Of a stretch of DNA of 40,482 bases, positions 3,368 through 23,840 are shown in pieces. This stretch comes from Escherichia phage vB_EcoP-22664UKE3-2, in the sequence record MZ234011.1, one strand, 5' to 3'. Under the pieces are notes generated by a model. The model was not told where the DNA came from. It saw nothing but the letters and a program-made list of their open reading frames with translations, and made no database searches. Positions within the stretch are counted from its first letter, which is position 1, and every line of letters begins with the position of its first letter. A program made the position numbers and the translations under genes.

Positions 3368-5899
3368 ATGTCCACGATTACACAATTCCCTTCAGGAAAC
3401 ACTCAGTACAGGATTGAGTTCGACTACCTAGCCAGAACGTTTGTTGTTGTTACGCTGGTGAATAGCTCTAACCCTACCCTGAACCGTGTACTGGAAGTTG
3501 GTCGAGATTACCGATTCCTTAATCCAACGATGATTGAGATGTTGGTTGACCAATCAGGTTTCGACATAGTTCGTATTCACCGTCAGACTGGAACTGACTT
3601 AGTGGTAGATTTCAGGAATGGCTCAGTGTTGACAGCTAGTGACCTGACCAATTCAGAGCTTCAGGCTATCCATATTGCAGAAGAAGGTCGAGACCAAACG
3701 GTTGACTTAGCGAAGGAATATGCCGATGCTGCTGGTAGCTCTGCTGGCAACGCTAAGGATAGCGAGGACGAAGCACGCCGAATCGCTGCGAGTATCAGGG
3801 AAGCTGGTCTAATTGGCTATATTACCCGTCGCTCCTTCGAGAAAGGCTACAACGTTACAACATGGAGCGAGGTCCTGCTATGGGAAGAGGATGGTGATTA
3901 TTACCGCTGGGATGGTACGCTTCCAAAGAACGTTCCTGCTGGTTCAACTCCTGAAACTTCCGGTGGGATTGGATTAGGTGCGTGGGTTAGTGTTGGTGAT
4001 GCTGCTTTAAGAAGTCAGATTTCAAACCCGGAAGGGGCAATACTCTACCCGGAATTGCAGATGGCAAGATGGCGTGATGAGGGTGATGTTCGAGGCTGGG
4101 GTGCTAAAGGGGATGGTGTAACAGATAGTACGGAGAATATAGCTGCTTCACTAAATTCTCAAAAAGCTGTCGTAGCATCAGAAGGTGTATTCTCTAGTTC
4201 TGGTATTAATAGTAATTACTGTAACTTAGACGGTAGAGGTAGTGGCGTGCTAAGTCACCGTTCCAGTACAGGTAACTACTTAGTATTTAACAATCCACGT
4301 ACAGGTCGCTTAAGTAATATTACGGTAGAAAGTAATAAGGCGACTGATACAACTCAGGGACATCAGGTATCTCTTGCCGGTGGAAGTGATGTTACTGTAA
4401 GTGACGTTAACTTCTCAAACGTTAAAGGTACTGGTTTCAGTTTAATCGCATACCCTAATGATGCGCCACCTGATGGACTTATGATTAAAGGCATTCGAGG
4501 TAGCTATTCCGGATATGCTACTAATAAGGTAGCAGGATGCGTACTTGCTGACTCATCAGTTAACTCCCTCATAGATAACGTCATTGCTAAGAACTACCCT
4601 CAGTTCGGAGCAGTAGAGTTGAAAGGTACAGCCCGTTACAACATAGTAAGTAATGTTATAGGGGCAGATTGCCAGCATGTAACTTACAACGGCACTGAAG
4701 GGCCAATAGCTCCTTCTAATAACCTTATCAAGGGGGTGATGGCTAATAACCCTAAGTATGCAGCGGTTGTTGCAGGCAAAGGAAGTACGAACTTAATCTC
4801 AGACGTGCTCGTAGATTACTCAACTTCTGATGCTAGGCAGGCTCATGGTGTTACCGTAGAAGGGTCTGATAACGTCATAAATAATGTGCTTATGTCAGGA
4901 TGTGATGCTACTAACTCTTTAGAACAAGGGCAGACTGCTACAATTGCACGCTTTATAGGTACAGCTAATAACAACTATGCGTCTGTATTTCCTAGCTACA
5001 GTGCTACAGGTGTTATTACTTTCGAATCCGGCTCTACCCGTAACTTCGTAGAGGTAAAGCACCCTGGAAGGAGGAACGACCTTCTCAGTTCTGCTAGTAC
5101 TATTGACGGTGCAGCTACTATTGACGGCACTAATAATAGTAACGTAGTGCACGCACCCGCCTTAGGGCAGTACATAGGTAGTATGTCAGGTAGGTTCGAA
5201 TGGCGGATTAAGTCCATGTCACTCCCTTCAGGCGTTCTTACTTCTGCTGATAAGTACAGAATGCTTGGGGATGGTGCTGTGTCATTAGCTGTAGGTGGTG
5301 GTGCATCTTCTCAAGTTCGACTATTTACTTCTGATGGTACTTCTCGGGGAGTATCACTCACCAACGGTAACGTGCGTCTTCCTACCAGTAGCACAGGTTA
5401 TTTGCAGTTAGGTTCTGATGCAATGACCCCAGATAGTACTAATACATACGCATTAGGTTCCGCAAGTAGAGCATGGTCTGGCGGTTTTACTCAATCAGCC
5501 TTCACTGTTGTCTCAGATGCTAGGGATAAAACAGAGCCTCTTAATATCTCAGATGCTTTACTGGATGCTTGGTCTGAAGTTGACTTTGTGCAGTTTCAGT
5601 ACTTGGACCGAATTGAGGAGAAGGGTGCAGACTCAGCTAGATGGCACTTCGGCATCATCGCTCAGCGAGCTAAGGAGGCCTTCGAACGTCACGGTATAGA
5701 TGCACATCGCTATGGCTTCCTGTGCTTCGACAATTGGGATGATGTATACGAGGAAGATGCCAATGGCTCTCGTAAACTGATTACACCAGCAGGTTCCCGC
5801 TACGGTATTCGTTACGAGGAAGTACTGATATTAGAGGCTGCGTTGATGCGGCGTACTATTAAGCGTATGCAGGAAGCATTAGCTGTTATGTCTAAGTGA
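3368..5899 (+). CDS. Tail fibre / tailspike (gp17-like): T7-type N-terminal adaptor + pectate-lyase-like beta-helix + C-terminal intramolecular chaperone (peptidase S74-like)
   Basis: N-terminal ~150 aa (YRIEFDYLARTFVVVTL...VDFRNGSVLTASDL...IHIAEEGRD) resembles the T7 gp17 N-domain; WGAKGDGVTDSTENIAA is a pectate-lyase-superfamily motif; C-terminus has SDARDK (Ser/Lys at i, i+5) followed by a chaperone-like domain; RBS AAGGAGG upstream. Confidence 0.85.
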   Translation: MSTITQFPSGNTQYRIEFDYLARTFVVVTLVNSSNPTLNRVLEVGRDYRFLNPTMIEMLVDQSGFDIVRIHRQTGTDLVVDFRNGSVLTASDLTNSELQAIHIAEEGRDQTVDLAKEYADAAGSSAGNAKDSEDEARRIAASIREAGLIGYITRRSFEKGYNVTTWSEVLLWEEDGDYYRWDGTLPKNVPAGSTPETSGGIGLGAWVSVGDAALRSQISNPEGAILYPELQMARWRDEGDVRGWGAKGDGVTDSTENIAASLNSQKAVVASEGVFSSSGINSNYCNLDGRGSGVLSHRSSTGNYLVFNNPRTGRLSNITVESNKATDTTQGHQVSLAGGSDVTVSDVNFSNVKGTGFSLIAYPNDAPPDGLMIKGIRGSYSGYATNKVAGCVLADSSVNSLIDNVIAKNYPQFGAVELKGTARYNIVSNVIGADCQHVTYNGTEGPIAPSNNLIKGVMANNPKYAAVVAGKGSTNLISDVLVDYSTSDARQAHGVTVEGSDNVINNVLMSGCDATNSLEQGQTATIARFIGTANNNYASVFPSYSATGVITFESGSTRNFVEVKHPGRRNDLLSSASTIDGAATIDGTNNSNVVHAPALGQYIGSMSGRFEWRIKSMSLPSGVLTSADKYRMLGDGAVSLAVGGGASSQVRLFTSDGTSRGVSLTNGNVRLPTSSTGYLQLGSDAMTPDSTNTYALGSASRAWSGGFTQSAFTVVSDARDKTEPLNISDALLDAWSEVDFVQFQYLDRIEEKGADSARWHFGIIAQRAKEAFERHGIDAHRYGFLCFDNWDDVYEEDANGSRKLITPAGSRYGIRYEEVLILEAALMRRTIKRMQEALAVMSK

Positions 5900-6082
5900 G
5901 TAATACTGGAAAGAATCGAAGCCAGACTTTCTGCTCTTGAACAGAAGTAATAAACAAACCATTTTGCCATTAAGTTGGTGGGGTAGATGTTAGAAGGTTG
6001 GTGTGGTATAGACTAACTACACGCTGACCAACGTAGGTAACAACTTTGGGTCACGGACGACCCGCTTTAAACTGGAGGTTTT

Positions 6083-6277: not shown

Positions 6278-6537
6278 CGCAGATGGACTTAGAGAAGTTC
6301 CTCTTGATGCTGGATACAGAACGTGCTCGACTCATGCTGCAAGACTTGCGGGATGACACTAAGCGTTCACCTCAGCTCTACAACGCCATTGAGAAACTGC
6401 TTGCTCGACACAACTTTGTGTTAAGCAAGGTGTCTGTGGACGAGAAGACGCTGGCGGATATGGAGGCCTTGAACGCAGAGTATGATAAGGTGCTCTCCGC
6501 TACGGAAGATAATGACACTGGATACGGAGTACAGTAA
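6274..6537 (+). CDS. Terminase small subunit (T7 gp18-like)
   Basis: FLLMLDTERARLMLQDL...RSPQLYNAIEKLLARHNF resembles T7 gp18; start overlaps the holin stop (ATGA). Confidence 0.8.
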   Translation: MTQMDLEKFLLMLDTERARLMLQDLRDDTKRSPQLYNAIEKLLARHNFVLSKVSVDEKTLADMEALNAEYDKVLSATEDNDTGYGVQ

Positions 6538-6540
6538 GCG

Positions 6541-6586
6541 TTAGACTCAAGGTCATTACTATATGTAGTGGCCTTTATGGTTAACA
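6541..6586 (+). promoter_or_regulatory. Conserved RNA hairpin, family 2 (AGACTCAAGGTCAT...GTGGCCTTTATGGTTAAC); putative RNase III processing site before gene 18.5
   Basis: One of three copies of the same motif (also about 16553 and 23779); stem AAGGUCA/UGGCCUU requires a G-U pair so works only as RNA; position corresponds to T7 R18.5. Confidence 0.4.
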
Positions 6587-6638
6587 CTAACTAGTGGAGG
6601 AGACTCTACGTGAAATCCGATAAACCGGGAGGGCAACT

Positions 6639-7519: not shown

Positions 7520-9278
7520 GAAAACACCTGCTGAAAGACAGGCTGAAATGACCCAAAGGATGAGGGACGACTTCGTGTTCTTCATCTTCGTTCTCTGGAA
7601 AGCGCTGAGCCTTCCGGTTCCAACCAGATGTCAGATAGATATGTGTAAGAAGCTGGCTGCTGGCGATAACCGACGCTTCATCCTTCAGGCGTTCCGAGGT
7701 ATTGGCAAATCGTTTCTGACCTGTGGTTTCGTGGTCTGGAAGCTATGGAACAACCCAGACTTGAAGTTCATGATTGTGTCGGCCTCAAAGGAACGAGCCG
7801 ATGCAAACTCCATCTTTATCAAGCGAATCATCGACCTCATGCCTCAGCTTCAGGAACTCAAACCTAAGCAGGGACAGCGAGATGCTGTTATCAGCTTCGA
7901 CGTTGGGCCAGCCAAGCCTGACCACTCACCTTCTGTTAAGTCAGTTGGTATCACTGGTCAGTTGACTGGTAGTCGTGCTGACATACTGATTGCCGATGAC
8001 GTGGAGGTTCCGAACAACTCAGCGACTCAGGCTGCACGAGACCGTCTGTCAGAGCTTGTGAAAGAGTTTGACGCTATCCTGAAGCCGGGAGGTACGATCA
8101 TCTATCTGGGTACTCCTCAGAACGAGATGACCCTGTACCGTGAGCTGGAAGGTCGTGGGTACATCACTACTATCTGGCCCGCTCGTTATCCACGCGATAA
8201 GAAGGACTGGCAGTCTTACGGCGACCGTCTTGCACCGATGCTTCAGGCAGAGCTTGAAGAGGACCCTGAGGCCTTCTACTGGCGTCCGACCGATGAAGTT
8301 CGATTCGACGATACTGACCTGAAGGAACGTGAGCTGTCCTACGGTAAAGCTGGCTTCGCTCTACAGTTCATGCTTAACCCTAACCTGAGTGATGCCGAGA
8401 AGTATCCTCTGAAGCTCCGTGACCTTATCGTAGCAGACTTGGACCCAGCGTCCAGCCCAATGGTCTACCAATGGTTACCGAACCCTCAGAACAAGCGTGA
8501 GGACGTTCCTAACGTTGGACTCATGGGTGACTCGTACCACACGTATCAGACTGTAGGTTCTGCCTTCAGTTCGTACACCCAGAAGATTCTGGTCATAGAC
8601 CCTAGTGGTCGTGGTAAGGATGAAACTGGCTATGCGGTACTATACCAGCTCAACGGCTACATCTTCGCTATGGAAGTTGGTGGCATGCGTGGTGGTTATG
8701 AAGACTCTACGCTGGAAGCCTTGGCTAAGATTGGTCGTAAGTGGAGGGTCAACGAATACGTCATTGAGGGTAACTTCGGTGATGGTATGTACCTTGAGCT
8801 ATTCAAGCCTGTAGCGGCCCGTATCCATCCTGCGGCTGTAACTGAAGTGAAGAGTAAGGGTCAGAAAGAACTACGCATCTGTGACGTTCTGGAGCCTATC
8901 ATGGGGTCTCACAGACTTATCGTTAACGCTGCTGCTATCGTCCAAGACTACCAGACAGCCTCTGACAAGGATGGTGTTCGTAATCCTATCTACTCTCTAT
9001 TCTATCAGATGACACGTATCTCTCGTGAGCGTGGAGCCTTGGCACACGATGACCGACTTGATGCGCTGGCTATCGGTGTACAGTTCTTCGTTGAGTCGAT
9101 GGCTAAGGATGCCAACAAAGGCGAACGTGAAGTCACTGAGGAATGGCTGGAGGAACAGATGGAGAACCCACGGAAAGGCTTCGAGTCCATCCACACTGAG
9201 TTCTGGGACAATGGGGTCCGGGTAACTCACGATACGGACGACGAGCTTGGACTAGGGTCATACGTTACGTTCCACTAG
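7512..9278 (+). CDS. Terminase large subunit (T7 gp19-like)
   Basis: 588 aa, same size and position as T7 gp19; Walker A-like GIGKSF motif near the N-terminus. Confidence 0.95.
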
Positions 9279-9287
9279 CTGAATGAA

Positions 9288-9336
9288 TAACTATAGGCGA
9301 AAACTGAATTAATACGCGGTTAGTAACCTATAGTTA
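9288..9336 (+). promoter_or_regulatory. Inverted repeat TAACTATAGG ... CCTATAGTTA (10-bp arms, 29-nt spacer) downstream of terminase
   Basis: Arms are exact reverse complements; lies in the non-coding right-end region. Confidence 0.5.
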
Positions 9337-9372
9337 CTACCAGTCTAACCTACTGTTTTACAAGGAGTTTGG

Positions 9373-9395
9373 ACTTAACTATCACTATAGGGAAG
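9373..9395 (+). promoter_or_regulatory. Phage RNAP promoter (CTTAACTATCACTATAGGGAAGA), phiOR-like position after gene 19
   Basis: Full match to the promoter core; position corresponds to T7 phiOR. Confidence 0.6.
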
Positions 9396-9573
9396 ACCCC
9401 CGGTTACTTATAGTATTACTGTAGTGAATATACATATGCAGACTTTATGCAAGACCTTAGGAGGCAGACTCCGAGTTCTTACCTAAGGCTTGCACCGATG
9501 GAAGGAGGTGATATTAATCATAATCCCTCCAATACAGATAGTCACCGACCATAGATACAGGAGGTATGTAGCA

Positions 9574-9747
9574 TATGGCAAAGACCAAAGCTGTACTTAA
9601 AGCTCTGGCGACCAATCGAGCTACATACAGGTTTCTTGCTGCTGTTCTACTTGCTGCTGGCGTTACTGCTGGAAGTCAGTGGGTCGGGTGGGTCGGGTGG
9701 GTCGGGTGGGTCGAGACTCTCGTATGTACTCTGGTCTCTCAGTGTAA
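9574..9747 (+). CDS. Small Cys-rich ORF (57 aa) containing an in-frame tandem repeat (VGR x4); possible gene 19.5 analogue
   Basis: Manual translation MAKTKAVLKSSGDQSSYIQVSCCCSTCCWRYCWKSVGRVGRVGRVGRDSRMYSGLSV; RBS CAGGAGG about 10 nt upstream. May be non-coding. Confidence 0.25.
9681..9713 (+). repeat. Tandem repeat, 9-bp unit GGGTCGGGT x ~3.7
   Basis: Directly visible: gggtcgggtgggtcgggtgggtcgggtgggtcg. Confidence 0.85.
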
Positions 9748-9980
9748 TTAACGCAATCATGGTAACGATTCATGAGCGGAAGACCTAAGGTCAGTACGTG
9801 GATAAAGACTCACTCTACTGACCTTAGCTACTGTAGTCAAGGACTTTAGGTAACACCTTAAGAGAAGCTCACTTAGGGTCATCCTACTTATTGGTCTATC
9901 CTAGTGTCGCCTGACCTACGGTCCTTGACCTACAGTGGCTGTGGTCTACAGTAGTGACGATGAGTTTTGGACCAAAAGTT

Positions 9981-10180
9981 TGAGACCACATCTCACAGTT
10001 CAAGAACTTCAAGTCTCCCCCATAGGCCTCTTTCAGTCCAGACCAAAGGCCCTACCCCAGTCTATCATAAGGTTGGACCGATGGTCAAGACTTCAGGTCA
10101 ACGATAGGTTGTGGCTATGGCTTAGGGAAGGACGATAGGTTGGGACTATGGGTCTGTCTTTGAGTCTCTATCTGTATCAG
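9981..10180 (+). repeat. Putative genome left end / terminal-repeat region (approximate boundaries)
   Basis: TCTCACAGT...TCTCCCCCATAGG resembles the T7 left-terminal sequence as I recall it; lies between the phiOR-like promoter and the host-promoter cluster. Confidence 0.35.
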
Positions 10181-10193
10181 ACCTTGAGTCACT

Positions 10194-10257
10194 ACCTACA
10201 GTCTAACTACCTACAGTCATCGACCATCGGTAATGCCGCTACCTACAGTCATCGACC
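10194..10257 (+). repeat. Short direct repeats ACCTACAGTC(ATCGACC) x3, analogous to the T7 end-proximal short repeat arrays
   Basis: ACCTACAGTC at 10194, 10209 and 10241; the last two extend to the 17-mer ACCTACAGTCATCGACC. Confidence 0.6.
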
Positions 10258-10376
10258 TACGGTTAATAGACACAAGGATATAGACTTAAGGTCTAATACA
10301 TGTTAGTCAAAGACTATATCCTCTTAGTCACTATGGGGCCGACGATAGCTTAATCAATATTATTTAAGATTACCTA

Positions 10377-10412
10377 TTGACTACAGGTCCAGACTATGGC
10401 TTAATATCTTCC
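10377..10412 (+). promoter_or_regulatory. Candidate host sigma70 early promoter (A1-like): TTGACT -35 with weak -10
   Basis: TTGACT at 10377-10382; a CTTAAT/TAATAT-like -10 follows at 17-19 nt; position matches the T7 A1-A3 cluster. Confidence 0.35.
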
Positions 10413-10517
10413 GTCAACACGACACGGCAACAACCGGATAGTGAAGACGCCGGGTCATCCCGGTTAAGTAGACAGCCTGATAAGTCATACGAACAACAGG
10501 CAGATGACAGAAAGTAG

Positions 10518-10547
10518 TTGACAAGATGTACCGACTTAAAGTAGTAT
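10518..10547 (+). promoter_or_regulatory. Host sigma70 early promoter (A3-like): TTGACA - 18 nt - TAGTAT
   Basis: TTGACAAGATGTACCGACTTAAAGTAGTATGTACCACATC closely parallels T7 A3 as I recall it, including the GTACCACAT start region. Confidence 0.5.
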
Positions 10548-10660
10548 GTACCACATCAACACGAAACAACGGTGACGACCAACACTGAAACGGTCTACCT
10601 GAAGTCCTCTGACTGAAGGGAATGCTCTTTAACAATCTGGATAAACTCTTAATGTGCGCC

Positions 10661-10723
10661 GACAGTGATTAACTACAGGGTCTTTGAGTCTACATCTGAA
10701 GGCCCTGACTGATAGTCACTAAC
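10661..10723 (+). promoter_or_regulatory. Repeated hairpin element, family 1 copy A (putative RNase III site before first early gene)
   Basis: AGTGATTAACTACAGG...CCTGACTGATAGTCACTAAC; imperfect inverted repeat; nearly identical to copy D at 12156. Confidence 0.5.
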
Positions 10724-10730
10724 TTAACGG

Positions 10731-10985
10731 ATGGACACTATGAAACACTTAAGCACAATCACTAATCGCAATGAAGTATTCGTGAACACTAAAGGTTATG
10801 CGTGGATTCAGCTTAAAGAGATGAGAGGAGCGCGTCACCGTGTGGTAGTTCGCAAGGTATCAAGCAAGCCGTTCAGCAACTACAGCGTAGATACTATGCG
10901 TATAGACAACGAGACTTACCTGATAGACTCGCAGATAACCGTGCGTCCTACAGCGGGCATCTCAGCTCCTTATTTCGCTAACTGA
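10731..10985 (+). CDS. Hypothetical early protein (84 aa, basic)
   Basis: ORF with RBS-like GGATGGA upstream; first gene after the host promoters; bracketed by family-1 hairpins; no similarity I can recognise. Confidence 0.6.
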   Translation: MDTMKHLSTITNRNEVFVNTKGYAWIQLKEMRGARHRVVVRKVSSKPFSNYSVDTMRIDNETYLIDSQITVRPTAGISAPYFAN

Positions 10986-11040
10986 GAGTGATTAACTACA
11001 GGTCGTTAGACTGATAGCGGCCTGACTGATAGTCACTAGC
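10985..11040 (+). promoter_or_regulatory. Repeated hairpin element, family 1 copy B (putative RNase III site)
   Basis: Same outer arms as copy A with inner variant GTCGTTAGACTGATAGCGGCC; near-identical to copy C. Confidence 0.5.
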
Positions 11041-11058
11041 AACCTAAGAGGATTCATT

Positions 11059-11337
11059 ATGAGACTGAACAAAGCTACAGCAGAAGCCTTTCGCAAGGAG
11101 CTTGAATCAAGATTATTGTGTGGAGTGGCGGAAGGAGCCGCTCGATATAAAGAGAATGGTCTAACGTTCAAGCGCTTTATGTGGGATTGCTATCACGGAG
11201 TGGGCCATAAAAAGTCGCAGGAAATAATCACCAGCAACAATGCGGAAGTGCAAGTGATAGGAGGATACATGGCTAACGTGAAGGATTCACACATAGAGAC
11301 AATGCTTAAGAATGCACTTAAAGATGTAGCCTACTAG
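11059..11337 (+). CDS. Hypothetical early protein (92 aa)
   Basis: ORF with RBS AAGAGGA upstream; between hairpin copies B and C; no recognisable similarity. Confidence 0.6.
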   Translation: MRLNKATAEAFRKELESRLLCGVAEGAARYKENGLTFKRFMWDCYHGVGHKKSQEIITSNNAEVQVIGGYMANVKDSHIETMLKNALKDVAY

Positions 11338-11388
11338 TGATTAACTACAGGTCGTTAGACTGATAGCGGCCTGACTGATAGTCACTAA
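11333..11388 (+). promoter_or_regulatory. Repeated hairpin element, family 1 copy C (putative RNase III site before ocr)
   Basis: Near-identical to copy B. Confidence 0.5.
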
Positions 11389-11417
11389 CACATAATTAAC
11401 TTTGAGAGGATATAACT

Positions 11418-11924
11418 ATGGAACGTAATGCTAACGCATACTATGAGCTGCTGGCTGCAACCGTTGAGGCATTTATCGAGCGTATTCAGTACGACCACCT
11501 GACTCAAGATGATGACTACAGCGATGCGCTGCATGAGGTCGTAGACGGTCAGGTTCCACACTATTACCACGAGATTTTTACGGTGATGGCTGCTGATGGT
11601 ATAGACCACGAGTTCGAAGACTCTGGGCTGATGCCTGAAACCAAGGACGTAACGCGTATCCTACAAGCTCGCATCTATGAGGCGCTTTATAACGATGTGT
11701 CTAATAGCTTGGATGTAGTCTGGTTTGAGGATGAAGAGGCAGAAGAAGAGGATGAATATTGGGTAGTTGACGCTAAAACAGGCGCAATAATTGTGCAAGC
11801 TGTAGCTCTTGAGGTCGCTACTGCATGTACCAAGGTTAACTATGCGGCAGGTCGCCACCTGAAGGTGGAAGACATCAATGATAACGTAGTGTTCGACCCT
11901 GCGGCTGAGGACTGCGAGCGATGA
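11418..11924 (+). CDS. ocr: Ocr-like anti-restriction DNA-mimic protein (T7 gp0.3 homologue), 168 aa with C-terminal extension
   Basis: [43 protein letters not shown] matches T7 Ocr ([43 protein letters not shown]) as I recall it; highly acidic. Confidence 0.85.
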
Positions 11925-12091
11925 TAACTTACGGTTTATGCCAGCACCACGTCACCAACGCCCGACTTATGGTCAAGACCGGGCGGTTAACCCATGATGA
12001 GACTATGCGTCTCCTGAAGGTGGTCTACAAGCGCCGCAAGCGCATACACGACAGTTTGCACGCTGAGGATAACCAACAATGCTCCAGATAA
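11921..12091 (+). CDS. Small hypothetical early ORF (56 aa)
   Basis: ATG overlaps the ocr stop (ATGA); manual translation [56 protein letters not shown]. Confidence 0.3.
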
Positions 12092-12155
12092 CTTATAGCA
12101 GCGAACAAGCGTTCTACGACGGGTGCTACGAGATGATGAAGCGCGATACTTGCTA

Positions 12156-12220
12156 GCGACAGTGATTAACTACAGGGTCTTTGAGTCTACATCTGAAGGC
12201 CCTGACTGATAGCCACTAAC
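12156..12220 (+). promoter_or_regulatory. Repeated hairpin element, family 1 copy D (putative RNase III site)
   Basis: One mismatch relative to copy A over about 60 bp. Confidence 0.5.
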
Positions 12221-12236
12221 AACTGAGAGGACAGAT

Positions 12237-12464
12237 ATGAACACAATCACTGGTGCCATAGCCAAAGGTTTTCGAGCAATTTTCAGTGAATCGCAAGAAG
12301 TATGCACCAATCATAAATTCGTACTTTCTTGCGTAGTAGGGGACGAGTTTGACGGATTCGATAAACTGGTGGTTTGCGACCATTGTGGACAAGAGGCTAT
12401 CCAACGCTCAAACGGTAAATTTGAATTAATAGACGATAGCCTTACAGAAGGAGACGGCGAGTAA
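12237..12464 (+). CDS. Hypothetical early protein (75 aa) with Cys pairs (possible zinc ribbon)
   Basis: RBS GAGAGGA upstream; two Cys pairs including CDHC. Confidence 0.5.
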   Translation: MNTITGAIAKGFRAIFSESQEVCTNHKFVLSCVVGDEFDGFDKLVVCDHCGQEAIQRSNGKFELIDDSLTEGDGE

Positions 12465-12596
12465 CCTAGATAAACAGGAGAGAACCAAATCGTAGCTTGA
12501 CCATAACGCTGACAGGTGGATACTGAGTGATAGACGAGAGGCCGTCGAATGATAGGTGGCCTCAAAGATTATCACTTGAATTAATAGGAGTTAACT

Positions 12597-12686
12597 ATGA
12601 GTGTGGGATATTGGGTCTGCCTAGCGCCAGTTATCTGGATGATAGGCTATGGGTTATACGACTGTATTAAACGGAAATCACTATGA
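12597..12686 (+). CDS. Small hydrophobic ORF (29 aa)
   Basis: RBS TAGGAG 6 nt upstream; MSVGYWVCLAPVIWMIGYGLYDCIKRKSL; N-terminus paralogous to the next ORF (IGYGL). Confidence 0.3.
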   Translation: MSVGYWVCLAPVIWMIGYGLYDCIKRKSL

Positions 12687-12880
12687 GTATTGCACTATTG
12701 ATAGCCATAGGCTATGGACTTATCGCATACGTGCTGGTGAGAGACATCAACAAGGCACGTAAAGTCTATAAATTCAACTATGTACGTATGGTCCGCTGGA
12801 CTGTACGTCAACCTAACGGACGATTCCTGCGCAATTTAGCGAACGTCTGGGATATAGCAACTCTTGGGAGCAAACTGTAA
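12683..12880 (+). CDS. Small membrane protein (65 aa)
   Basis: Start overlaps the previous stop (ATGA); N-terminal hydrophobic segment LLIAIGYGLIAYVLV then basic tail. Confidence 0.45.
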   Translation: MSIALLIAIGYGLIAYVLVRDINKARKVYKFNYVRMVRWTVRQPNGRFLRNLANVWDIATLGSKL

Positions 12881-13206
12881 TGAACAAGTCATACGGGATT
12901 AATCTGGTACACTCTATGGACGCAGAAATGAACATGTTAAGCCTACTGGCTACCGGGTATCGTCACGGAACGTCAAGTCACACCGCACGTCAACAGCAGG
13001 AGAGGGACCGTGTACTACAGGCGCGACTCCGGGCAGAGGGCCATAAGTCCGAACTGATGTGTCTGGCGTATGGCGGACGACCGATCACTGACGATGGTAA
13101 ACTTCTGGTATCAGGCTGGAAGGCGATAGACCAACGGTCAACCATCAAGCACACGACTCACGGTGACTTCAGCCATCTCCACGCTAACCCACTGATATGC
13201 AAGTGA
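12880..13206 (+). CDS. Hypothetical early protein (108 aa)
   Basis: ORF in the early region immediately upstream of the RNAP gene; no recognisable similarity. Confidence 0.5.
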   Translation: MNKSYGINLVHSMDAEMNMLSLLATGYRHGTSSHTARQQQERDRVLQARLRAEGHKSELMCLAYGGRPITDDGKLLVSGWKAIDQRSTIKHTTHGDFSHLHANPLICK

Positions 13207-13211
13207 TTATG

Positions 13212-13234
13212 ACTTAACTATCACTATAGGACTC
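13212..13234 (+). promoter_or_regulatory. Phage RNAP promoter immediately upstream of the RNAP gene (CTTAACTATCACTATAGGACTC)
   Basis: Full promoter core 70 nt upstream of the gene 1 start. Confidence 0.6.
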
Positions 13235-13303
13235 AAGGTCTAAGACTCCAAGTGAAAGACCAAAGAGACTTTAAGTGAAAGACTAATAACAAGGACTTTA
13301 AGT

Positions 13304-15985
13304 ATGAGCGTCATCTCTATTGACAAACACGACTTCTCTGATGTGTCGAACGCCATTGAGCCGTTTAACCTGCTGGCTGACCACTACGGGCAAGACCTTG
13401 CAGTCAAACAGCTTCAGCTTGAGCATGAGGCCTACACTGAAGGTGAGCGACGTTTCATCAAGAACCTTGAGCGTCAGACCGAGCGAGGGGAACTGGCAGA
13501 CAATCAGGTCGCCAAGCCTTTGATGCAGACTCTGGTTCCTAAGATTGCGCAAGCCGTCAAGGAGTGGCACGAAGGTCCAGACGGGAAGCTGTCAACCTCA
13601 CGTCCGAGCGTAGCGTTCACCATGTTAAGCACTGAAGAGAAGGCCGTCAAGGACCGCTCTCTTCGCATCTCCTGCGAGTCTGCTGCGGTTATCATACTGA
13701 AGGTCATCCTCTCCAAGCTGGTCAAGCCTGAAGGTATACCGATTACACCGATGGCCTCCGCGATAGGTCGCACACTTGAGGATGAAATCCGATTCGGTCG
13801 CATTCGTGACAAGGAGAAGGAGCACTTCAAGAAGGCGATAGCTGATAACCTGAACAAGAGAGCCGGGGCATCATACAAGAAAGCCTACATGCAAGCGGTC
13901 GAGACATCCATGCTGGAGCAAGGCCAACTAGAAGATGCGTGGGGAACTTGGAGTCCGACCGAGGCTGTCCACGTTGGAATCAAGATGCTGGAGATTGTCA
14001 TACAGTCAACACAACTGGTCGAGCTTAAGCGTTACGGTGCTGGCAATGCAGCGGCTGACGTTGAGATGGTCCACCTGTCAGACTTCTGGGTCAAGAAGAT
14101 GGCACAACGAGGATTCAGCCTTGCGGGTATCGCCCCAGTCTACCAGCCTTGCGTCGTTCCGCCTAAGCCGTGGACTGGTGTCGTAGGCGGTGGGTATTGG
14201 GCCAAAGGTCGAAGACCATTGCCACTGATTCGCTTAGGGTCTAAGTCTGCGGTAGCACGTTATGAAGACGTATACATGCCTGAAGTCTATGAAGCTGTGA
14301 ATATCATCCAGAATACACCTTGGAAAGTGAACAAGAAGGTATTGGACGTGGTGAACAGGGTCGAGAAGCTGAACAACACGCCTATTAATGACATCCCTCA
14401 GATGGAACCGCTGAAGCCTGAGGACTATGCTGGTGAAACCGAGGAGGAACTCAAGGCATGGAAGAAGGCTGCTGCTGGTATCTATCGCCGCGAGAAGGCC
14501 AGACAGTCACGCAGATTATCACTGAGCTTTATCGTTAACCAAGCAAACAAGTTCTCTCAGTTCAAGGCCATCTGGTTCCCGTACAACATGGATTGGCGAG
14601 GTCGTGTCTACGCTGTCCCGATGTTCAACCCTCAGGGTAACGACATGCAGAAGGGGCTCCTGACTCTGGCAGTCGGCAAGCCTATTGGTGCTGACGGTTT
14701 CAAATGGCTGAAGGTCCACGGTGCAAACTGTGCGGGTGTCGATAAAGTCACCTTCGATGAGCGCATCAAGTGGGTGGAAGACAACCACGAAAACATCATG
14801 GCTGCTGCTAAGGCACCGATGGATAGCATTGAGTGGTGGGGCAAGTTAGACTCTCCGTTCTGCTTCCTAGCGTTCTGCTTCGAGTATGCTGGCGTAATGC
14901 ACCACGGCTTGTCTTACTCCTGCTCGCTGCCGATAGCGTTCGATGGGTCCTGCTCTGGGATTCAGCACTTCAGCGCTATGCTTCGCGACCACATCGGTGG
15001 ACATGCAGTAAACCTGACGCCATCCGGTAAGGTCCAAGACATCTACCGCATCGTGTCTGACCGCATTGAGGAGGAGCTTAAAGTCCTACTGGTTAACGGT
15101 ACGGACAACGAGATGGTAACTCACGAGGACAAGAAAACTGGTGAGATTACCGAGCGTCTCAAGCTGGGGACACGAGAGCTTGCCCGTCAGTGGCTGACCT
15201 ACGGTATGTCACGAAAGGTCACTAAGCGTTCGGTCATGACTCTGGCCTACGGGTCGAAAGAGTACGGCTTCGCAGGCCAAGTTTACGAGGACATCGTGAT
15301 GCCAGCGATTGACTCAGGGTCTGGCGCTATGTTCACTGAACCAAGCCAAGCATCTCGCTTCATGGCTAAGATGATTTGGGAAGCTGTGAGTGTGACCGTA
15401 GTTGCTGCGGTTGACGCGATGAAATGGCTTCAGGGTGCTGCCAAGCTGCTTGCTGCTGAAGTGAAGGACAAGAAGACTGGAGAAATCCTGAAGCCTTGTC
15501 TTCCGGTACACTGGGTCACACCTGATGGTTTCCCTGTCTGGCAGGAATACCGAAAGAAGGACACCACTCGTCTGAACCTGATGTTCTTAGGGTCATTCAA
15601 CCTTCAGCCTACCGTCAACAAAGGCACGAAGAAAGAGCTGGACAAGCACAAGCAGGAGTCAGGCATTAGCCCGAACTTCGTCCACTCACAAGATGGTAGC
15701 CACCTCCGCAAGACTGTAGTCCACACGCACCGCAAATATGGCGTGATGTCATTCGCAGTGATTCACGATAGCTTCGGGACCATCCCGGCTGACGCTGAGT
15801 ATCTGTTCCGTGGAGTCCGTGAGACGATGGTCGAGACCTACCGCGACAACGATGTGCTGCTTGACTTCTACGAGCAGTTTGAATACCAGCTTCACGAGAG
15901 CCAGAGAGACAAGTTGCCTGAGCTTCCTAAGAAAGGTAAACTGAATATCGAAGACATCTTGTCTTCAGACTTTGCATTCGCTTAA
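13304..15985 (+). CDS. 1: DNA-directed RNA polymerase, single-subunit (T7 gp1-like)
   Basis: 893 aa; N-terminus DKHDFSDVSNAIEPFNLLADHYG...LEHEAYTEGERRF...ADNQVAKPL parallels T7 RNAP; C-terminal FAFA like T7. Confidence 0.97.
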   Translation: MSVISIDKHDFSDVSNAIEPFNLLADHYGQDLAVKQLQLEHEAYTEGERRFIKNLERQTERGELADNQVAKPLMQTLVPKIAQAVKEWHEGPDGKLSTSRPSVAFTMLSTEEKAVKDRSLRISCESAAVIILKVILSKLVKPEGIPITPMASAIGRTLEDEIRFGRIRDKEKEHFKKAIADNLNKRAGASYKKAYMQAVETSMLEQGQLEDAWGTWSPTEAVHVGIKMLEIVIQSTQLVELKRYGAGNAAADVEMVHLSDFWVKKMAQRGFSLAGIAPVYQPCVVPPKPWTGVVGGGYWAKGRRPLPLIRLGSKSAVARYEDVYMPEVYEAVNIIQNTPWKVNKKVLDVVNRVEKLNNTPINDIPQMEPLKPEDYAGETEEELKAWKKAAAGIYRREKARQSRRLSLSFIVNQANKFSQFKAIWFPYNMDWRGRVYAVPMFNPQGNDMQKGLLTLAVGKPIGADGFKWLKVHGANCAGVDKVTFDERIKWVEDNHENIMAAAKAPMDSIEWWGKLDSPFCFLAFCFEYAGVMHHGLSYSCSLPIAFDGSCSGIQHFSAMLRDHIGGHAVNLTPSGKVQDIYRIVSDRIEEELKVLLVNGTDNEMVTHEDKKTGEITERLKLGTRELARQWLTYGMSRKVTKRSVMTLAYGSKEYGFAGQVYEDIVMPAIDSGSGAMFTEPSQASRFMAKMIWEAVSVTVVAAVDAMKWLQGAAKLLAAEVKDKKTGEILKPCLPVHWVTPDGFPVWQEYRKKDTTRLNLMFLGSFNLQPTVNKGTKKELDKHKQESGISPNFVHSQDGSHLRKTVVHTHRKYGVMSFAVIHDSFGTIPADAEYLFRGVRETMVETYRDNDVLLDFYEQFEYQLHESQRDKLPELPKKGKLNIEDILSSDFAFA

Positions 15986-16532: not shown

Positions 16533-16555
16533 CCTAAACTATCACTATAGGCTTA
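16533..16555 (+). promoter_or_regulatory. Phage RNAP promoter (CCTAAACTATCACTATAGGCTTA), phi1.1-like
   Basis: Full promoter core upstream of gene 1.1. Confidence 0.6.
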
Positions 16556-16598
16556 GACTCAAGGTCATGACTCAAAGTCGTGGCCTTCATGATTAACC
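16553..16598 (+). promoter_or_regulatory. Conserved RNA hairpin, family 2; putative RNase III site (R1.1-like)
   Basis: AGACTCAAGGTCAT...GTGGCCTTCATGATTAAC; same motif as at 6541 and 23779. Confidence 0.4.
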
Positions 16599-16628
16599 CT
16601 AAATAAACACTACTGGAGATTTAACCGT

Positions 16629-21896: not shown

Positions 21897-23776
<1,880 letters not shown>

Positions 23777-23778
23777 GT

Positions 23779-23823
23779 CTAGACTCAAGGTCATTCATAG
23801 CGAGTGGCCTTTATGATTAGACT
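23779..23823 (+). promoter_or_regulatory. Conserved RNA hairpin, family 2; putative RNase III site upstream of DNA polymerase
   Basis: AGACTCAAGGTCAT...GTGGCCTTTATGATTAG; third copy of the motif. Confidence 0.4.
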
Positions 23824-23840
23824 AAAGCGGAGGATTAACC

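Follow-up and report, generated by a model that had tools for sequence, protein, structure and literature searches.

Two small genes, called gene 1 and gene 2 here, lie on the + strand between a sigma-70-type promoter sequence and the anti-restriction gene ocr of Escherichia phage vB_EcoP-22664UKE3-2 (MZ234011.1), whose 40,482 nt were analysed as one stretch, the window, to which all positions refer unless stated otherwise (Table 1). We consider it probable, at roughly 0.7, that these are two accessory early genes carried on their own RNase III-bounded segments, and that their products have a host-directed accessory role. In a phage of the K1F type, the two probably count among the class I (early) genes that can be dispensed with.

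The window holds the whole genome in circularly permuted form, and its sequence places it in Kayfunavirus, in the K1F-like branch of Autographiviridae/Studiervirinae. Region 10300-12600 shares 99.9% identity with Escherichia phages vB_EcoP-PM129, PM131, PM137 and PM139, and 93-97% with many other Kayfunavirus genomes. After the large terminase gene, whose end is at 9278, come the genome ends and then the early region, which runs rightward to the RNA polymerase (RNAP) gene at 13304. The sigma-70-type site listed in Table 1 is the last promoter-like site ahead of the early genes and presumably acts as a host promoter. Terminator-like sites were not found in 9300-13400 (0 against 2.3 expected in shuffled sequences), the stems being followed by no U-tract. 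As the initial annotation had stated, 0.3 is the first gene after the host promoters in T7; this layout was checked, and 0.3 indeed follows promoters A1-A3.

Table 1. Features of the early region (CM, covariance model; pI, isoelectric point; z, z-score of the fold)
Feature	Position	Strand	Remarks
Putative sigma-70-type host promoter	10518..10547	+	TTGACA-18-TAGTAT; best consensus match in 9300-13400, 10/12 positions
Hairpin 1, long-loop variant, T7 R0.3 position	10660..10728 (core 10664-10721)	+	CM 68 bits, E = 3.5e-12; -23.2 kcal/mol, z = -2.7
Gene 1, K1F gene 0.2 family, 81 aa	10740..10985	+	pI 10.1; PHROG 10124; predicted all-beta
Hairpin 2	10983..11045 (core 10987-11041)	+	CM 78.8 bits; fold z = -4.5
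Gene 2, PHROG 9817 family, 92 aa	11059..11337	+	pI 8.95; predicted mainly helical
Hairpin 3	11332..11394 (core 11336-11390)	+	CM 77.9 bits; fold z = -5.3
ocr (gene 0.3), 168 aa	11418..11924	+	pI 4.08; Pfam ocr E = 3.5e-30, residues 8-95; PHROG 2568
Hairpin 4, closes ocr segment	12157..12225	+	CM 66 bits; direct-repeat family D2
Hairpin 5, sequence closest to T7 R0.5	12522..12584	+	CM 60.9 bits; aligned with T7 R0.5

Gene 1, gene 2 and their relatives

The gene 1 open reading frame (ORF) codes for 84 aa from its first ATG (10731) and for 81 aa from the ATG at 10740. The latter is probably the start, because the homologues, including the annotated gene 0.2 of K1F, begin with MKHLS. The product is 94% identical to K1F gp0.2 (YP_424910), which is encoded at the equivalent position, and it matches PHROG 10124, a family annotated as hypothetical, across the whole profile (E = 1.1e-38). 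It is strongly basic (charge +5.7), and six strands are seen in its AlphaFold2 (AF2) model, which is of moderate confidence (predicted local distance difference test, pLDDT, 75.6). It should be further pointed out that Ser, Thr and Tyr make up 22% of its residues; early proteins of kinase-encoding Autographiviridae are reportedly depleted in these three.

The gene 2 product aligns over residues 1-92 with positions 1-93 of the 94 in the PHROG 9817 profile (E = 7.5e-27), and this family is likewise annotated as hypothetical. Its members are uniform in size, 83 of the 86 protein clusters being 88-95 aa long, and the source contigs, where long, measure ~38-45 kb. The structure model of gene 2 is weak (pLDDT 67.9; predicted template modelling score, pTM, 0.44) and returned just generic helical matches.

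Judged by their pattern of substitution, both ORFs are real genes under purifying selection. When gene 1 was compared with close relatives, the ratio of nonsynonymous to synonymous substitution rates (dN/dS) was 0.17-0.56, and comparison with distant relatives gave 0.07-0.08; for gene 2 it was 0.12-0.24 among close relatives, and distant pairs of either gene with measurable dS gave 0.07-0.18. Homologues of both genes stay full length down to 35-50% identity. The initial annotation had placed two unknown ORFs of 84 and 92 aa, without recognisable similarity, upstream of ocr. Their place and the length of the second agree with our results, while the first is shortened to 81 aa by the start of its homologues. 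Similarity does exist, to K1F gp0.2/PHROG 10124 and to PHROG 9817, and the word unknown overstated the novelty, as the K1F reference record already lists the first ORF under the name gene 0.2.

In a reference set of ~220 phage records with a K1F-like RNAP gene, a close copy of gene 1 occurs in 70 (~32%) and one of gene 2 in 17 (~8%). Gene 2 is carried by the Kayfunaviruses T147_P5, AN24_P4 and AN17_P1 and is lacking from LI10_P1 and LM33_P1. Both genes are accessory and stand in a variable slot that also holds ocr; in a Salmonella Typhi Kayfunavirus this slot is filled by genes of PHROG 336 and PHROG 11084, with no ocr. Homologues of gene 1 reach beyond the genus. In Przondovirus (Klebsiella) the homologue again comes first, with a hairpin on either side and ocr directly after it. 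It is found in the early region of N4-like Gamaleyavirus, between the two RNAP II subunit genes, and in Phapecoctavirus inside an array of small genes of no assigned function; neither of these two loci has RNase III-type hairpins or an ocr annotated among the neighbouring genes. As these phage groups differ in genome size and layout but have the same enterobacterial hosts, the distribution gives circumstantial support to a host-directed function. No homologue of either gene was found in 72,556 plasmids (tblastn), and the region had no DNA-level match in 5,426 complete E. coli genomes (blastn).

RNase III-type hairpins of the early region

Hairpins 1 to 3, which bound genes 1 and 2, were detected with covariance-model E-values of about 1e-12 to 1e-14, well outside the range of chance, and fold more stably than shuffled sequences. 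Hairpins 2 and 3, on either side of gene 2, are 98% identical over 55 nt. Hairpin 1 has its arms in common with these two, but its upper stem and loop are longer, and it is 98% identical to hairpin 4. The stop codon of gene 1 adjoins the 5' arm of hairpin 2, and the stop codon of gene 2 (TAG) lies inside the 5' arm of hairpin 3. Hairpins 4 and 5 delimit the ocr segment and the small gene that comes after it.

These hairpins align with T7 R0.3, R0.5 and R1 and have with them the common pattern AGTGAT.AAC...CAAGG/CAGG...GGCCT...GAT.ATCACT. In the RNAalifold consensus an asymmetric internal loop separates a lower stem of 8 bp from an upper stem of 9 bp, and compensatory changes occur in 9 of the 18 pairs. 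A covariance model trained on ten sites scored the five window hairpins at 61-79 bits and recovered two T7 sites from outside the training set, R1.1 (T7 positions 5845-5905, 32.7 bits) and, weakly, R1.3. When 45 homologous sites from 13 sources were aligned, 96.8% of the cells paired and double changes were seen in 14 of the 18 pairs, against 30-42% pairing in controls with the partner slid by 1-3 columns; this alignment was fitted to the covariance model and hence leans towards structure, and the margin over the controls is large. All 45 hits fall between ORFs, on the strand that carries the genes. Rfam holds no family for these hairpins.

By homology and by covarying structure, the hairpins are RNase III-type sites homologous to T7 R0.3/R0.5/R1, at which cleavage would be expected. 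The T7 cleavage positions, reportedly after U890, U1468 and U3138 (Dunn & Studier 1983), agree with the T7 sequences examined. By alignment with these positions, RNase III would cut after 10710, 11027 and 11376 in hairpins 1, 2 and 3, respectively. Several statements of the initial annotation are borne out: copies of one hairpin element flank each ORF (three were found, with homologous arms), the element is RNase III-like, and each ORF is an independent unit, a real gene between two such sites. Its term cassette goes too far if a dedicated system was meant, as hairpins of this kind punctuate the whole set of early genes, in this phage and in T7. Such bracketing is how T7-like phages generally organise their early mRNA and is not special to these two genes; it is ordinary biology of the T7 group, because hairpins 4 and 5 bound further early genes and T7 is punctuated alike.

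We infer the following course of events. Host RNAP would start at the left-end sigma-70 promoters and produce a single long early transcript, in which host RNase III would cut each hairpin once, on the 3' side of the internal loop, at the positions given above. The cuts would release a 317-nt mRNA of gene 1 and a 349-nt mRNA of gene 2, each with its own leader and Shine-Dalgarno sequence at the start and a protective stem-loop at the 3' end. An mRNA is stabilised when RNase III cuts it once and a folded 3' end remains (PMC6993053), and the same may apply here. The common hairpin arms would serve as homology patches for the gain, loss and reordering of single-gene modules. Each protein, finally, would most likely bind and neutralise one host component early in infection.

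Two side observations concern the hairpins. Hairpins 1 and 4 form 64-nt direct repeats (10660-10723 and 12157-12220) that bracket the gene 1-gene 2-ocr block, and recombination between them would remove the anti-restriction module in a single step. The covariance model also finds three weaker RNase III-type sites at 6533-6596 (48.8 bits), 16545-16608 (32.3 bits) and 23771-23831 (34.9 bits), which are presumably counterparts of later T7 sites.

Gene order, exchange of units and neighbouring sequence

The order of the units varies among relatives of the window. With R standing for a hairpin and g1 and g2 for the two genes, the window and LS2 (MN518894.2) read R-g1-R-g2-R-ocr and Vec13 reads R-g2-R-g1-R-ocr. 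Single genes are found as R-g2-R-ocr in TM1 and as R-g1-R-ocr in K1F, LM33_P1 and 101120B1-2, and AP10 (Apdecimavirus) has R-ocr-0.4-R-g2-R. With genes 1 and 2 in tandem, the window, the PM129 group and LS2/ECG4/Peacock represent a minority layout. Each gene retains its own leader, e.g. CAACCTAAGAGGATTCATTATG for gene 2, and the type of the preceding hairpin varies with position; in AP10 a K1F-type hairpin follows gene 2 within an otherwise T7-type set. From these comparisons we are confident that the two accessory early genes, each on its own RNase III-bounded segment, have been exchanged as modules among T7-like phages. The hairpin between genes 1 and 2 of LS2 (positions 1020-1082 of its extracted stretch) is degenerate (17 bits), with C substituted in many places, for which either decay of the site or a sequencing artefact would be responsible.

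A recent change is seen in 101120B2 (MZ234023), which is 99.3% identical to the window over the sequence shared with 10300-12600. Exactly 11042-11335 of the window (294 nt, the gene 2 unit) is absent from it, and two complete 55-nt hairpins stand back to back, at positions 1184-1300 of its extracted stretch, corresponding to 10983-11394 of the window. Hairpin-hairpin recombination does not account for this empty slot, because one copy, not two, would remain. The laboratory-bred PM129-139 phages, whose backbone is given as 101120B2 (PMC8614997), equal it at every flanking single-nucleotide polymorphism and carry the 294 nt in addition (compared over 9800-12810). Gene 2 is present in all four sequenced bred isolates, for which a sweep, a founder effect or a mixed stock could be responsible. 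A donor of gene 2 was not found among the published ancestors searched, a set that does not include the probable ancestor MZ234011.

At its C-terminus the ocr product, like that of K1F, continues past the Pfam ocr domain with a mildly acidic extension of ~52 aa (residues 117-168); the ocr genes of Vec13, TM1 and LS2 code for ~110 aa without it. Between ocr and the RNAP gene (11924-13304) no gp0.7-type protein kinase or shut-off gene was found, and this interval holds only small ORFs, of PHROGs 5058, 32657, 2385 and 7066. The Przondovirus relative has a gp0.7-type kinase, which in T7 is a broad anti-defence factor (PMC13645617).

At the non-coding left end, just after the terminase gene and near the genome ends, the 9-nt unit GTGGGTCGG is repeated perfectly in tandem over 9679-9713. 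Two 52-nt copies at 9340-9391 and 13179-13230, 79% identical and both terminating in GACTTAACTATCACTATAGG, resemble phage RNAP promoters; one lies near the left end and the other just upstream of the RNAP gene.

Candidate functions and comparison with known systems

Both products are small, basic, stand-alone proteins without an enzymatic signature. Pfam, NCBIfam and PADLOC scans gave no match for either of them, and per-member Pfam scans of the two family alignments gave nothing consistent; a match to DUF5680 was rejected (E = 0.08 at best, in 4 of 20 members). Profile searches with both families against all PDB sequences returned just hits of E > 0.3, comparison with PDB folds gave no informative match, and Foldseek against BFVD found just uncharacterised small phage proteins. 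No paper naming K1F gp0.2, PHROG 10124 or PHROG 9817 was found in the literature.

A HMMER search of 1.84 billion representatives with the gene 1 profile gave 15 matches, of which 13 are small (65-88 aa). One of the other two is a 1147-aa cell-wall amidase with five SH3_5 repeats, where a local similarity of 30-33 residues reached an hhalign probability of 65%; the score is too high because one weak match recurs several times, and we treat it as a lead only. An SH3_5 domain was rejected for gene 1, as Pfam SH3_5 matches no member of the family and no match to an SH3-barrel fold was obtained. The only multi-domain relative found is a 189-aa protein (P0135), in which a gene 1-like N-terminal domain is joined to an unannotated C-terminal part of ~110 aa.

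It is reasonable to infer that the two proteins act on the host, and a number of points weigh against the reading proposed here. Neither protein resembles a known anti-defence, anti-restriction or host-takeover protein in sequence, profile or fold. The structure models reach only pLDDT 75.6 and 67.9. The screen of 200 accessory genes by Silas et al. includes neither gene, and no expression data for this phage or its relatives were found in the papers searched. With gene 2 present on the 101120B2 backbone, which lacks it, the bred phages did not surpass their ancestors in host range, in a comparison that is confounded (PMC8614997). As for the exchange of units, recombination in flanking identical sequence, instead of in the hairpins, is also possible.

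Among the specific roles, anti-defence is our leading guess, with general host takeover as its main rival. One or both proteins may inhibit a specific defence system (restriction-modification (RM), BREX, retrons, Gabija) and form an anti-defence island with ocr, which we regard as a possibility at somewhat less than even odds. The two genes stand directly ahead of ocr and would be the first expressed, and the adjacency of gene 1 and ocr recurs in Przondovirus. Their patchy distribution, the recent gain or loss of a unit between 99%-identical phages, the transfer of gene 1 across phage families and the presence of gene 2 in each of the sequenced bred isolates point the same way, as does the lack of a gp0.7 kinase gene between ocr and the RNAP gene of the window. 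On the other side, PHROGs, Pfam, NCBIfam, PDB sequences and PDB/BFVD folds yielded no characterised anti-defence homologue, a search that did not cover dbAPIS and AntiDefenseFinder. Pfam ocr matches neither gene, and mimicry of DNA as by Ocr or ArdA is excluded, both proteins being basic (pI 10.1 and 8.95 against 4.1 for Ocr). Plasmids hold no homologues, and plasmid leading regions are reportedly enriched in anti-defence genes. That the bred phages did not gain in host range, in the confounded comparison above, also speaks against such a role, and in a matrix of 96 phages by 403 strains defence systems account for little of host range. The searches revealed no homology to housekeeping early proteins, and the anti-defence hypothesis of the initial annotation survives, unconfirmed.

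The two products might alternatively be general host-takeover factors, each hitting a housekeeping target such as cell division, the cytoskeleton, RNA polymerase, the nucleoid or a nuclease; this we judge only slightly less likely. T7 has takeover proteins of this kind in gp0.4, gp0.6, gp2 and gp5.5, and in size and early expression the two proteins are like the T7 class I/II inhibitors. Gene 1 codes for a basic, beta-rich protein with a weak local likeness to SH3 barrels, compatible with binding of nucleic acid or of an acidic host protein, and it occurs in three phage families that have only the host in common. Such functions, however, tend towards conservation across a genus, whereas the two genes are found in ~32% and 8% of K1F-like genomes and gene 2 is present or absent between 99%-identical phages; homology to any T7 early protein is also lacking. 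We lean towards a counter-defence role that is strain-specific, and away from a general shut-off of the host.

A bolder form of the counter-defence idea seems doubtful to us: the near-identical hairpins would be portable recombination linkers, the early region an exchangeable array of leader-ORF-hairpin units and the tandem hairpins of 101120B2 a vacant slot, and the products would inhibit as yet unassigned E. coli defence systems, for example an Ocr sensor.

Still less probable is a role in phage-phage competition or superinfection exclusion, or in neutralising a host system that senses Ocr (PARIS, Ronin, EcoR22I), as an anti-anti-restriction back-up. Gene 1 tightly adjoins ocr in two genera, and abortive systems triggered by Ocr are common in wild E. 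coli (bioRxiv 10.1101/2023.04.06.535777). Against it, the gene 1 loci of the N4-like phages and Phapecoctavirus have no annotated ocr nearby, and in AP10 gene 0.4 and a hairpin separate gene 2 from ocr. That the ORFs are spurious, or the hairpins intrinsic terminators or small mobile repeats of the repetitive extragenic palindrome (REP) or miniature inverted-repeat transposable element (MITE) type, is very improbable: the ORFs are short and without functional annotation and five hairpin copies stand in ~2 kb, but both ORFs are under purifying selection and conserved across genera, the stems lack U-tracts and terminator-like sites number zero, the hairpins have homologues in the RNase III sites mapped in T7 and their model recovers the untrained R1.1, all copies lie on the transcribed strand between cistrons, and the region is without match in E. 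coli genomes.

For the preferred reading, two accessory early genes on RNase III-bounded segments with a host-directed role, much of the ground is already known: the genes are deposited as hypothetical proteins, gene 0.2 of K1F is annotated, and the RNA punctuation is classical T7. The modest additions are the pattern of module shuffling and the tandem empty hairpins. At present this amounts to a well-founded candidate list rather than a discovery. Should either protein prove to block a defence system, it would represent a new family of inhibitors that are not DNA mimics, one already circulating in therapeutic-type coliphages and in Klebsiella phages. The leader-ORF-hairpin unit of ~300-350 nt moves intact between phages, which suggests a portable format for adding accessory genes to engineered T7-like phages or removing them.

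The closest known counterparts of the hairpins are T7 R0.3/R0.5/R1/R1.1, with homologous arms (AGTGAT.AAC...GAT.ATCACT), two helices and an asymmetric internal loop. In both phages the sites separate cistrons on the transcribed strand, and the foremost one stands between the host promoters and the first gene. The window differs in being denser, with five sites in 1.9 kb, and its genes of 81 and 92 aa are single units, whereas T7 segments carry 1-3 genes. Its copies are also up to 98% identical and form direct repeats of 55-64 nt able to recombine. Between the two genes and K1F gene 0.2/PHROG 10124 and PHROG 9817 there is no difference in kind.

Ocr itself (T7 gp0.3, a DNA mimic) resembles the two products as a small stand-alone protein from the same early variable slot, among the first expressed. 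With a pI of 4.1 and a charge of -30 it is far from their pI of 10.1 and 8.95, and there is no similarity in sequence or fold. Accessory regions and morons (Silas et al. 2023; Hendrix-type modules) are alike in that their genes are small, of fast turnover and patchy, stand beside a known counter-defence gene and are exchanged between unrelated phages. Unlike morons, the modules described here have no promoter or terminator of their own and are bounded by RNA-processing sites within one operon.

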